A stretch of 64,000 nucleotides of DNA from an uncultured bacterium (GTDB taxonomy: Bacteria > Cyanobacteriota > Vampirovibrionia > Gastranaerophilales > Gastranaerophilaceae). The notes beneath the pieces were generated by a model. The model did not search any database. It saw only the letters and a list, made by a program, of their open reading frames with translations, and was not told the origin of the DNA. A program made the translations under genes and the position numbers. Every line of letters starts with the position of its first letter. The stretch's first letter is position 1. Below, piece by piece: positions 13,822 to 49,091 of the stretch. Where the stretch lies: NCBI GenBank assembly GCA_949299935.1, contig CASGCE010000031.1:47643-111642 (forward strand), given 5' to 3'.

Positions 13822-14278
13822 ATAAAGCAGCCGGATAATCGCGCAGAAATGTGAGGAAAGTCCGTGCATTCAAGGACAGACCGCCGGAGAAAGTCCGGAC
13901 GACGTGAGTCGGTGGAAAGTGCCACAGAAATGTCGAATTTTGGTCGAAATATCGTTTGAGTTTCAATAATCACAGATTCAATTCAAACGGTTTTCGGGGA
14001 TGTTACTTTCCCAAATGCCAATGATTCGTGGTGTTGAGTTAAACGCCAAGACTGCCGATGGATTTTATATCACAGGCGATGGTGCAACGGTGAGTTAAGA
14101 GCTTCACCAGTGATATCGAGAGATATCAGCTAGGTAAACCCCGGTCGAATGCAAGATTGAATCGAAGGTTATAAAGGCTGTCCGCCCACTTCGGAAAAAT
14201 CGCTAGAGTATGCGGGTAACCGCATTCCCAGACAGATGATTATCTAGAAACAGAACACGGCTTATGAACTGCTTTATG
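13822..14278 (+). ncRNA. rnpB: RNase P RNA, bacterial type A, with extra sequence
   Basis: GAGGAAAGTCCGTGC (P4 5' strand), GTGCCACAGAAA, GGTAAACCCC, TGCAAG and ACAGAACACGGCTTA (P4 3' strand). The terminal pairing ATAAAGCAG / CTGCTTTAT closes P1. Followed by a terminator. About 457 nt. Confidence 0.85.
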
Positions 14279-14280
14279 AT

Positions 14281-46790: not shown

Positions 46791-47159
46791 ATGCACATTC
46801 ACGTAAACGGAAGAAACATTGAAATTACTGATGCTATCAAGGCTTATGTAAAAGAGAAAATAGGCAAAGTTGCTGCGCATTATGATCAAATTCAGGGAAT
46901 CGACGTAGTTTTGTCGGTAATAAAAAATCCCTCAGCATCAGGAAAACATGTTGCTGAGGTTTCTTGCAAAATGGCTTCCGGCGTAGTACGCTGTGAAGAA
47001 GCTGCTGAATCTATGTATGCAAGCATTGATTTATTAGCTGACAAGTTGGCAAGACAAATAGAAAAATATAAAGGTAAAACACTTACTCCGAGTAAAGAAT
47101 CTATTCGAACAGATTCTGTTGAAGAAAGTGAAGATACCGACAAAGAAATTGTTGAATAA
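46791..47159 (+). CDS. hpf: Ribosome hibernation promoting factor (short HPF/RaiA family)
   Basis: MHIHVNGRNIEITDAIKAYVKEKI...YASIDLLADKLARQIEKYK is the sigma-54 modulation protein/S30EA signature pattern. Confidence 0.9.
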   Translation: MHIHVNGRNIEITDAIKAYVKEKIGKVAAHYDQIQGIDVVLSVIKNPSASGKHVAEVSCKMASGVVRCEEAAESMYASIDLLADKLARQIEKYKGKTLTPSKESIRTDSVEESEDTDKEIVE

Positions 47160-47163
47160 CACG

Positions 47164-47190
47164 AAAAGAGCCTTAACAGGCTCTTTTTAA
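47164..47190. terminator. Bidirectional terminator between hpf and the convergent pilin-like gene
   Basis: AAAAGAGCC-TTAACA-GGCTCTTTT, flanked by A and T runs. Confidence 0.75.
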
Positions 47191-47200
47191 TATTTTGATA

Positions 47201-48084
47201 TTATTTAAAACATTCATCATACATTTGCTGAAACGTTCTGCCACCTTTTTCCGTAGCGTAATTGGAAGAACTCAAAGTTGTAATACCTCCGCTCAAATCT
47301 CCAACAAATTGGAAAGAAAATATATCGTATCCCCATTTGTTGGGGCCTTTAAATCCGTTTATGTCAACCGTAAATACAGGAGTAGCCGTCAACAAGTTTT
47401 TATTGGAATATTTAATTAGATACGTTCCATCCGATAAAACTGCAACAGAATAACTATTTTTTATTTTACTGTCAGAAAAATCACCGTTTGGATCATAGTT
47501 TTCATCAGGATTTTTTTCTGAATTGGCTACATCTGCCCCTCTAAAATCCTTAGGTAAACATCCTTGTTCATATGCTTTATTGTCACATATTTTGGTTGTT
47601 TTTAATGTATTATAAAATAATTCATTATAAAATTCTGTGCATTCACTAAATGCACCGGTATAATCAGACGGGAGAGGTTCACCTGTTTCTGCACAAGCCC
47701 AAACAGTACAAGTACCAAAATCATTACGGTCTGTACAGGTTGCCGTACACTTACCCGTATAAGGATTCCTCTTACTATTCCAATAATAACATTTTACAAG
47801 TCTGCCATTTTTTGTCTGTATACCAAATACTGCTTGTGTAAATGTGCTATAAAATTTTCTAAACTGATTTTTTAATACAAATTCCTGTATTTTTGAGGTG
47901 ACTGTCGGTATTGTTATTGCCGCTACTATACCGATTATTCCAAGCGTTATTAATACCTCCGCTAATGTAAAACCTTTTCTTAAACCGTGTTTTAAATTAC
48001 AATACCTAATATCAATTAAGTAAAAACCCTTGTCTTTTCTACTTAGAGGAGTCGCCCCCCCCCGTTATTTCCGCTCAATTTCAT
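47201..48084 (-). pseudogene. Type IV pilin-like gene, interrupted as sequenced: the ATG and RBS are out of frame with the pilin body across a G9 tract
   Basis: The minus-strand frame is open from 48064 to 47201 (287 aa). It encodes LRKG|FTLAEVLITLGIIGIVAAITIP and the C-terminal TVDINGFKGPNKWGYDIFSF, but has no ATG, GTG or TTG before 47395. AAGGAGG-N6-ATG at 48084 sits in a different frame and stops after 13 codons. Confidence 0.8.
48055..48063 (-). repeat. Homopolymer: nine G on the coding (minus) strand
   Basis: Plus-strand CCCCCCCCC counted at 48055-48063, between the ATG and the pilin reading frame. Confidence 0.95.
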
Positions 48085-48108
48085 TCACTTCCTCCTTTTA
48101 TCAGGTTG

Positions 48109-48137
48109 ATTATACCATAGTTTTTTATGATTTGCAA
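48109..48137 (-). promoter_or_regulatory. Sigma-70-like promoter for the pilin-like gene (TTGCAA-N17-TGgTATAAT)
   Basis: Reverse complement of 48132-48137 is TTGCAA. Reverse complement of 48109-48114 is TATAAT, with a TG extension. Confidence 0.55.
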
Positions 48138-48168
48138 CAAAAAATAAAGGCGGTGGAGGGCACCGCCT
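48138..48168 (-). terminator. Rho-independent terminator of the GGDEF gene
   Basis: The minus strand reads AGGCGGTG-CCCTC-CACCGCCT followed by TTATTTTTT. Confidence 0.75.
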
Positions 48169-48218
48169 ATTAACCAGATATACACTTTCGTGCTCAGAAA
48201 GGAGCTTGTTTTAATGTT

Positions 48219-49091
48219 CTATTCTCCTAAGTTTATTTGAGAGAACTGAACAATTTTATTTTTACCGCGTTTTTTCGCATTGTATAACGCATGTTCAGCG
48301 TAACGTATAATTGTATTTGCATCTTCTTCAGCGCCTTCTATGCAGGGATAAGTCGAAATGCCACCTGAAATTGTAATCGGGTGTCTTTCTTCTTCTCCGG
48401 CAGGAATAAATTCCATTCTTTCAATTTCACGTCTGAATCTTTCTGCGAATAAAAATGCATTATCTTCTGATGTATTTGGTAAAATGAGCAAAAATTCTTC
48501 ATCGCCGTATCTTGTCAAAACATCTTCTTTTCTGATTAGCTGTTTCAATTTGTCGGCAATGGAACGTAAAAGAACATCTCCCCATTCGTATCCATAAATA
48601 TCATTAACTACTTTAAAAAAGTCTAAATCAAACAAAAGACACGAAAGACTGTTACCGTATCTCCTTGACCGTGAAATTTCCTGTTCTAAACGTTCATTTA
48701 AATATTTTCTGTTATGCAAACCGGTAAGTTCATCTGTTGTAGACACAATCTTTAACTTTTCACGCAAATCTCTGATTTTCAAAAGACAATTTGCACGAAT
48801 TAAAAGTTCATCATTGTCGACAGGAGTCTTAATAAAATCAAAAGCAACAGAACGTACCGTAGTGCCTTTAAAAACTTCTCCGATAAACAAAACCGGCACT
48901 TTAAATTTTATTACCATTAAAACATCTTTAATATTAGAAACACTTTCTATAACAATAATTGCCGGATTTAAAGTTTCATAATCTTTTAAATTTTCAGCAT
49001 TTTCAATTCTAACGTTGGTATCGTCAATCTTAGCCAACACATCGGCAATAGTCGAAGAATTTTGATCGGTATAAACAACAATATTTCTCAT
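48219..49091 (-). CDS. GGDEF-domain protein with a degenerate active site (GDEEF) and an N-terminal receiver-like domain
   Basis: TGLHNRKYL, LFDLDFFKVVNDIYGYEWGD, RKED (RxxD I-site) and RYGDEEF in place of RYGGEEF. The N-terminal ~110 aa is CheY-like, but it has IIVIES where the phospho-acceptor Asp is expected. Confidence 0.85.
   Translation of the reverse strand: MRNIVVYTDQNSSTIADVLAKIDDTNVRIENAENLKDYETLNPAIIVIESVSNIKDVLMVIKFKVPVLFIGEVFKGTTVRSVAFDFIKTPVDNDELLIRANCLLKIRDLREKLKIVSTTDELTGLHNRKYLNERLEQEISRSRRYGNSLSCLLFDLDFFKVVNDIYGYEWGDVLLRSIADKLKQLIRKEDVLTRYGDEEFLLILPNTSEDNAFLFAERFRREIERMEFIPAGEEERHPITISGGISTYPCIEGAEEDANTIIRYAEHALYNAKKRGKNKIVQFSQINLGE

Follow-up and report, generated by a model that had tools for sequence, protein, structure and literature searches.

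A poly-G leader cassette as a probable frame switch of pilin-like genes in Gastranaerophilales

The pilin locus and its reading frames

The window, a 64-kb stretch of contig CASGCE010000031.1 from an uncultured bacterium of the Gastranaerophilaceae, carries on its minus strand a solitary gene for a type IV pilin-like protein, and a run of nine G residues (G9) separates a complete promoter and translation start from the body of this gene. A first-pass annotation, made from the letters alone, had read the run as a candidate slipped-strand phase switch. The gene lies between a GGDEF gene upstream (48219-49091, Pfam assignment) and a convergent HPF gene downstream (46791-47159, plus strand), with MntP, DUF4127 and other housekeeping genes nearby. 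Since the GGDEF gene is closed by an intrinsic terminator, the pilin cassette is isolated as a transcription unit of its own. The features of the locus are listed below, with coordinates given as positions in the window (ORF, open reading frame).

48148..48168, minus strand: intrinsic terminator of the upstream GGDEF gene (8-bp stem, 6 GC pairs, T-run)
48109..48137, minus strand: outer promoter, TTGCAA (48137-48132), 17-nt spacer, extended -10 TGgTATAAT (TATAAT 48114-48109)
48091..48097, minus strand: Shine-Dalgarno (SD) sequence AAGGAGG, 6 nt ahead of the ATG at 48084-48082
48043..48084, minus strand: mini-ORF in the ATG frame, MKLSGNNGGGRLL plus TAA (48045-48043), the product at G9
48055..48063, minus strand: G9 homopolymer (C9 on the plus strand), the putative frame-switch element
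48039..48054, minus strand: conserved 16-nt block CGACTCCTCTAAGTAG, encoding A-T-P-L-S-R in the pilin frame
47972..48055, minus strand: long-leader coding segment ATPLSRKDKGFYLIDIRYCNLKHGLRKG in the pilin frame, ending at Gly-1 (GGT 47974-47972)
48024-48019 and 48001-47996, minus strand: remnant of an inner promoter and start, TTTACT (formerly TTGACC) and TGTAAT (formerly TATAAT), respectively
47201..47971, minus strand: mature pilin-like protein, 256 aa, FTLAEVLITLGIIGIVAA..., with a Cys-rich head, plus TAA 47203-47201
47164..47187, minus strand: bidirectional terminator hairpin between the pilin ORF and the convergent HPF gene

Upon reading the minus strand of 47100-48300, we found the promoter, the ribosome-binding site, the ATG and the G9 each where the first-pass annotation had placed them, and the outer promoter scored 10/12 with TG in a promoter scan. 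The tract (48063-48055) starts 21 nt past the ATG at 48084, after six codons. As had also been described, the ATG frame ends at the TAA at 48045-48043, and the neighbouring pilin frame is open from 48064 to the TAA at 47203-47201, spanning 287 codons with no ATG, GTG or TTG before 47395. Tract variants made in silico confirmed that G7 and G10 join the ATG to the pilin frame and that nine is the OFF length; G8, G9 and G11 all led to a stop at TAA or TAG within 6 codons. The 16-nt block behind the tract puts the TAA in the ATG frame and the TAG in the third frame, and thus the pilin frame alone stays open; it also contains an all-pyrimidine 7-mer able to pair with the G tract at the RNA level. 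Furthermore, the G9 is the sole G or C run longer than 5 in the window: runs of 6, 7 and 8 are absent and there is a single run of 9 at 34% GC, indicating that it is not a chance feature.

The prepilin site and helix claimed for the ORF were borne out. The protein, LRKG/FTLAEVLITLGIIGIVAAITIP (the slash marks the cleavage site), matched Pfam N_methyl PF07963 at 25.5 bits (cut-off, 21.2) and TIGR02532 at 27.5 (cut-off, 16.3), and its prepilin motif reads LRKG/FTLAEV... with Glu at +5, followed by a hydrophobic helix. An AlphaFold2 model of 47204-47983 (-), built with 44 homologues, reached a predicted local distance difference test score of 88.3 and contains a 52-residue N-terminal helix (model residues 7-58) and an alpha/beta, beta-rich head. 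The G/F-T-L-x-E motif and the hydrophobic N-terminal helix are shared with proteins of the class III signal peptide type (PF07963, TIGR02532), namely, type IV pilins and type II secretion pseudopilins, and the predicted alpha/beta head would be a further common feature. In contrast to these, the leader here is of 22-38 residues or longer with a conserved GGGA[ST]PLS, and the ~200-residue Cys-rich head, although modelled with high confidence, had no match below E = 0.35 in a Foldseek search against the PDB, pilins included. No prepilin peptidase, assembly ATPase or platform gene was present within ~5 kb of the pilin gene, the neighbourhood to which the search was confined.

A protein search with the hypothetical G10 product yielded more than 7,000 relatives. 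Several over-extended gene calls among them hold the window "leader" peptide (NGGGATPLS, GGASPLSRYSKGF and similar), and the tract with the sequence that follows it is therefore conserved DNA.

A leader cassette shared among Gastranaerophilales

When genomes were scanned with the pattern G(5 or more)-C-NN-CTCYTNTAAGTAG, 67 loci were recovered, 63 of them in Candidatus Gastranaerophilales metagenome-assembled genomes (MAGs) or look-alike uncultured bins (Melainabacteria); the other 4 were chance matches. The cassette was present in at least 11 Gastranaerophilales MAGs, with up to 17 copies per MAG, and these counts are lower bounds because the scan misses variant blocks. The MAGs in the scan came from human and chicken samples and had been built with SPAdes, MEGAHIT and IDBA. 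The cassette or diverged copies of it accounted for nearly all G/C tracts of at least 8 in 459 kb of these genomes. A scan of JGI metagenomes with the cassette pattern returned only 4 chance-like G5 matches. No published description of a poly-G pilin cassette was found in a literature search, and the cassette is previously undescribed; the proposed G9 switch itself is of a known kind, namely, homopolymer slipped-strand phase variation in a leader-peptide region.

The copies share one plan, consisting of an extended -10, AAGGAG(G/A), an ATG with 6-9 poorly conserved codons, the G tract, C..CTCCTYTAAGTAG and then the pilin frame. In all true copies, the frame starting at the tract's last G leads after the block into ...K-G/F-T-L-A-E-V. 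Of 65 cassettes, 52 have a TATAAT-like -10 (at most 1 mismatch) ahead of the SD, and in 37 of these the TG is present as well. The 16-nt block was near-invariant among 62 unique copies, an apparent invariance that is partly circular, since the scan pattern fixes most of the 16-mer. Variant blocks (C..CTCTCCTAAGTAG and CAACCTCTTTAAGTAG) were seen at L080:1528-1553, L081:52-77, L017:538-562 (minus) and L054:2836-2859 (minus); the variants CTCTCCT and CCTCTTT were found only by routes other than the pattern scan. Variant blocks keep the all-pyrimidine 7-mer and both wrong-frame stops, with the encoded Pro changed to Leu.

Tract lengths in the 76 pattern hits were G9 (57 hits), G10 (9), G11 (3), G8 (1) and G5-6 (6, including the 4 chance hits). 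This distribution bears on a caveat of the first-pass annotation, that an assembly or sequencing miscount could hide a true G10 in a gene that is simply intact. Runs of G are prone to error, and the tract length in a database entry may misrepresent the population (PMC9187656). Against such an error, G9 prevailed across three assemblers and was called in all three independent assemblies of the window locus, and at other loci of these MAGs the assemblies readily gave G10 and G11. We therefore regard a miscount as very unlikely, indeed close to negligible.

The register of the cassettes is strongly skewed. Among 64 cassettes with a resolvable SD and start, 50 were one nucleotide short of the pilin frame, as in the window, 9 were in frame and 5 were in the third register. 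Mini-ORFs of 12-15 codons ending in ...GGG[RHQL]L[LF] and a stop occurred in 50 of the 64, the ATG-to-tract distance was a multiple of 3 in nearly all, and each MAG had 0-3 in-frame cassettes out of 6-16. The stretch from the tract to the cleavage site ranged from 9 to 156 codons across loci. In the pilin frame, no stop was encountered between the tract and G/F in 2,055 codons from 56 loci; in the other two frames, 128 and 282 stops were counted in 1,999 codons each (6.4% and 14.1%), counts to be read with the cassette copies not being independent. This decisive contrast argues that the stretch has been kept coding, in continuity with the tract. Moreover, 13 of 46 out-of-frame cassettes, the window included, had no in-frame ATG, GTG or TTG before the cleavage site. 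The ORF end fell inside the 300 codons read in 8 of these 13, and all 8 were intact (219-284 codons); the other 5 were stop-free there. Because such cassettes are start-less and yet open in the OFF state, prepilin expression from them requires a frame change at the tract.

Three subtypes were distinguished by what follows the block. In type A, the block runs directly into KG/FTLAE, and the leader is ~22 residues long. Type B has an extra segment between the block and the pilin, which in 17 loci measures exactly 30 codons from the GCN codon at the last G to Gly-1. In 25 of 65 cassettes, this segment carries a consensus TTGACA-17-TATAAT and, 6 nt further on, an in-frame ATG (e.g., L001:185-213). 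We infer from this spacing that the inner promoter has the geometry of a leaderless mRNA, from which a normal short leader, M[KR]NY..KG/F, would be translated, and the arrangement would give type B genes two alternative starts and two leader lengths. The window copy is of type B, and it has a longer leader because this subtype contains the extra segment. The 38-residue leader that the first-pass annotation had flagged as an oddity is thus ordinary: M-x(5-8)-GGG-A-[ST]-[PL]-L-S-[RS]-x-x-K-G/F is the family's standard long leader. Type C copies have long inserts built of recurring repeat modules, the translations of which (VILNLFQDL..RFFA.AQNDK, SEAHSKELNVLTSYRLNDFKKK, VPYCLSNLVSSKK and FRDHSGAGGGSVVE) are all stop-free in the pilin frame. 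Leaders of 89-156 codons made of repeat modules were observed at L060, L020, L013, L035, L055, L057, L028 and L053.

Two further observations concern single loci. At L051:7327-7335 and L056:2917-2925, an opposite-strand SD-ATG is followed by 12 codons and a C9 that reads in frame into '...KDFALAEGATH...', suggesting that these genomes hold a second class of genes under tract control. The syntenic loci L080 and L020 (flanks 81-88% identical), from two divergent genomes, were both G10 and in frame; such a locus may represent a copy kept ON, perhaps the main expressed pilin.

Tract-length alleles and the proposed frame switch

Tract-length alleles were observed directly at a polymorphic type B paralogue in the context TIM, cassette-pilin, UPF0367, YceD. 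Its 90%-identity cluster contains 295-aa forms, which read MFIYVKHNGGGATPLS... from the SD-ATG through the tract, and 262-aa forms, which start at the inner ATG. The haplotype pairs were as follows.

P0123 (295 aa), 37 contigs; P0125 (262 aa), 9 contigs
P0130 (295 aa), 3 contigs; P0124 (262 aa), 28 contigs
P0128 (295 aa), 3 contigs; P0127 (262 aa), 7 contigs
P0003 (295 aa), 1 contig; P0126 (262 aa), 8 contigs

Four mature-protein haplotypes occur in both states, with totals of 44 contigs for the 295-aa form versus 63 for the 262-aa form. At the nucleotide level, L082 (G10, on a 183-kb contig, 9x) and L084 (G9, 21x, from another sample) differed over 1,590 nt by 0 mismatches and 1 gap, located in the tract. 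Other alleles at this locus were G9 (L064a, L085 and L086) and G10 (L079). As the flanks are identical and the tract differs, the tract changes faster than one substitution accumulates, and such fast change is the signature of a slipped-strand contingency locus. The frame-switch reading of G9 is therefore supported at the family level.

Taken together with the anatomy and the register statistics, these data lead us to propose, at a probability of roughly two in three, that the G9 is the switch of a conserved, portable leader cassette heading many pilin-like genes of Gastranaerophilales. Given the promoter and the strong SD-ATG, translation would begin 18-27 nt ahead of the tract. With nine G, the modal length, ribosomes would read Gly-Gly-Gly, meet the conserved TAA five codons on and release a peptide of ~13 residues, leaving the prepilin frame, open from the last G to G/FTLAE, untranslated. 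Slipped-strand mispairing during replication would alter the tract by one G at high frequency and reversibly, and at G10 the ATG would be fused to the prepilin frame, yielding a precursor with the leader M..N-GGG-A[ST]PLS[RS]..KG/F. Each genome would then hold a repertoire of mostly silent pilin variants that switch independently, of which the window copy would be one in the OFF register.

Several findings weigh against this proposal. The window locus itself showed no tract variation, being G9 in 3/3 assemblies (the window, its syntenic orthologue L001 and a third assembly, L087), and the protein search returned no in-frame allele of it. Since G9 alone was seen in the three assemblies, the phase switch claimed by the first-pass annotation holds for the family, by the G9/G10 alleles of the paralogous locus, and would extend to the window locus by analogy with its relatives. 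The polymorphic paralogous locus itself carries an inner ATG that may act independently of the tract. The intactness of the window ORF says little on selection at 0.65% divergence from L001. Finally, the near-invariant 16-nt block and the excess of the OFF register (50 versus 5) go beyond the needs of simple phase variation and may point to an added role at the RNA level.

Such a role could be programmed recoding, in which RNA polymerase slippage adds a G or ribosomes slip -1 on G GGG GGG, giving a low, constitutive output of prepilin that would be compatible with DNA switching. MAGs of human and of chicken origin show the same one-nucleotide-short register, re-pairing in the -1 frame is perfect on a G run, and a 9-nt run equals the length of the RNA:DNA hybrid. 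The wrong-frame stops and the all-pyrimidine 7-mer are conserved even where the residue alternates between Pro and Leu, and a hairpin of the G tract with CUCCUCU (G2-G8 pairing) was predicted in 41 of 61 minimum-free-energy folds, with a mean z of only -0.57. Against recoding, G9/G10 alleles at the DNA level were directly observed and are common, rG:dC hybrids are the least slippage-prone, and no conserved downstream stimulatory structure was found, the sequences after the 16-mer being different between subtypes. The G9 mode is, moreover, accounted for by mutational bias (PMC3401435). On balance, we consider recoding unlikely. A search against Rfam, covering the window at the gathering threshold and 47900-48220 at permissive E-values, returned no relevant family. 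Two structural candidates were discarded. A riboswitch-like element is not claimed, the helix sequestering the SD with CUCCU being predicted in only 13 of 61 folds with weak z-scores; and a G-quadruplex role, as in Neisseria pilE, was rejected because a single G9 cannot form an intramolecular quadruplex and no other G runs lie nearby.

Comparison with programmed slippage systems points both ways. Known examples of programmed slippage or -1 frameshifting include the A9 of Thermus dnaX, the T9 of Shigella mxiE and IS elements, and programmed transcriptional slippage and -1 ribosomal frameshifting are reportedly covered by Atkins et al. 2016 (cited in PMC9187656). With the cassette, these systems share a conserved homopolymer of 9 nt, a short ORF in the zero frame that stops just behind the run, and a long conserved ORF in the -1 frame. 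In contrast, the run here is G, no stimulatory element is demonstrable, and DNA-level length alleles are common; to our knowledge, bacterial slippage cases use A/T runs, usually with stimulatory structures. A broader possibility, which we put forward tentatively and hold to be rather doubtful, is that the G9 with its -1 register, the invariant block and the pyrimidine 7-mer form an RNA recoding site that gives silent pilins a basal output, and that, with the cassette also serving as a recombination junction, recoding, phase variation and cassette shuffling are combined in one system for surface variation in these non-photosynthetic cyanobacterial relatives.

The history of the window locus was examined by comparison with L001, which is 98.4% identical over 2.6 kb and shares the HPF, MntP and DUF4127 neighbours. 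L001 has the outer promoter, SD, ATG and G9 as in the window, plus an inner TTGACC-17-TATAAT-6-ATG (MKNYSSKKG/F). In the window, both inner promoter elements (-35 and -10) have decayed, and the inner ATG was removed by a 9-nt in-frame deletion near 47991/47990, which left a leader segment of 27 codons versus 30 and kept the tract-to-pilin frame intact. The absence of a start codon reported in the first-pass annotation is thus true of the window copy and is a derived state. With the inner promoter and ATG lost, the window copy became wholly tract-dependent for expression. The two loci differ at 41 positions in ~1.09 kb, 28 of which are concentrated in the 83-nt stretch that leads from the block to the cleavage site. 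Over the 771-nt mature ORF, only 5 nt differ (4 synonymous changes and 1 aa change), and from the -35 to the tract there are 2 differences in 73 nt, none in the promoter, SD, ATG or tract. Such clustering suggests that the leader underwent segment replacement or rapid remodelling; no donor of the divergent segment was found among the at least 80 loci fetched. The third assembly, L087, has the same start-less leader and G9, with 1 mismatch and 0 gaps in 1,359 nt. In that sample (ERZ17292904), the window locus is split over two contigs, L087 and L088, that overlap by ~76 nt in the conserved N-terminal region of the pilin; repeat-induced breaks of this sort are typical of assemblies of the family.

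These comparisons also bear on whether the window copy is newly dead, that is, a former inner-start gene whose start was destroyed and whose upstream cassette is an unused relic. The lost inner promoter and ATG and the OFF state in 3/3 assemblies would fit such a history, and ORF intactness is uninformative at 5 nt of divergence. Weakly against it, the deletion is of exactly 9 nt, the 27-codon leader is stop-free despite 19 substitutions, and relative to L001 hardly anything has changed in the outer promoter, SD, ATG, tract and 16-mer. Decay of the orthologues or loss of their upstream ATG and RBS, which the first-pass annotation had named as marks of a plain pseudogene, was not seen: orthologous and paralogous loci alike retain both elements and are undecayed. 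In addition, 12 other cassettes are equally start-less, 7 of which have a reached ORF end and all are intact, and the tract-to-pilin frame is kept open even in inner-start subtypes. A newly dead gene is thus improbable. Translation might instead begin downstream of the tract at a non-canonical codon, for example the in-frame ATT at 48016-48014 or 48010-48008, the first of which has AAGGG ~10 nt upstream. Downstream initiation does exist in relatives, but it uses a canonical ATG at a position deleted from the window; the ATT codons sit in the -35/spacer remnant of the inner promoter rather than at a conserved start and have no properly spaced SD. We consider this start highly improbable, and the frame switch at the G9 remains our preferred reading of the window copy.

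Recombination at the cassette and known systems

Pairwise comparison of loci showed identity that breaks at the cassette. From the first G onward, L018 and L026, on different contigs of the same MAG, match at 100% identity over 367 nt, and ahead of it they are unrelated. The segment common to L001 and L029 is confined to 0..165 nt after the tract; L029 had been considered as a G11 orthologue of the window and was rejected, as it is not syntenic upstream and shares this segment alone. L017 and L038 have a common 1-kb upstream flank up to +28, the end of TAAGTAG, after which a pilin gene follows in L017 and not in L038. Since identity breaks at the first G or after TAAGTAG, expression units and pilin bodies appear to reassort at this point, and the cassette thus seems to behave as a recombination junction.

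Poly-G tracts in leader regions of surface genes have precedents. In Neisseria pilC, a poly-G lies in the signal-peptide region, pilC being a tip adhesin and not a pilin. The closest functional precedent is found in another gut commensal, Bifidobacterium breve, in which a G tract splits the first pilus gene into a signal-peptide ORF and a body ORF at the sortase-dependent pilus loci bbr_0113 and bbr_1889; tract length decides read-through from the only active start, and replication slippage was shown by error-corrected sequencing (PMC9187656). The B. breve system differs in its sortase (LPXTG) pilins with Sec signals, its tracts of G10-G12 and its one or two loci per genome (PMC9187656), whereas in Gastranaerophilales the genes encode type IV pilin-like prepilins, the mode is G9, a genome may carry as many as 17 cassettes or more, the 16-nt block is conserved, and many copies have a second inner start. 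The poly-G/C contingency loci of Campylobacter jejuni likewise peak at nine residues, a mode attributed to a bias towards insertion in shorter tracts and towards deletion in longer ones (PMC3401435). There, the tracts lie in unrelated genes with gene-specific ON lengths (PMC3401435); here, one cassette is reused, and its modal state is OFF in ~78% of copies. The opa genes of Neisseria also form a multi-copy surface family, with CTCTT repeats in the leader-peptide region, independent slipped-strand switching, most copies OFF and added diversity from recombination between copies (PMC3960869). In contrast, Opa proteins are outer-membrane beta-barrels switched by pentamer repeats, the Gastranaerophilales cassette is a promoter/SD/mini-ORF unit of its own with fixed stops in both wrong frames, and the organisms are unrelated.

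If the frame switch is as proposed, a single reused poly-G leader cassette would serve ~6-17 or more pilin-like genes per genome, each able to switch on its own and most of them silent. For a commensal lineage, this would be a large repertoire of contingency loci, with a logic comparable to that of the Neisseria opa genes. What is known of the biology of Gastranaerophilales, uncultured inhabitants of the human and animal gut, comes from genomes only, and the cassette gives read-level work on phase variation a defined target directly in metagenomes. Gene callers systematically mis-annotate the family, producing truncated proteins, spurious long N-termini or missing genes, as the true start lies out of frame.

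Elsewhere in the window, a bacterial RNase P RNA of class A was detected at 13823-14280 (+) with 203.8 bits.

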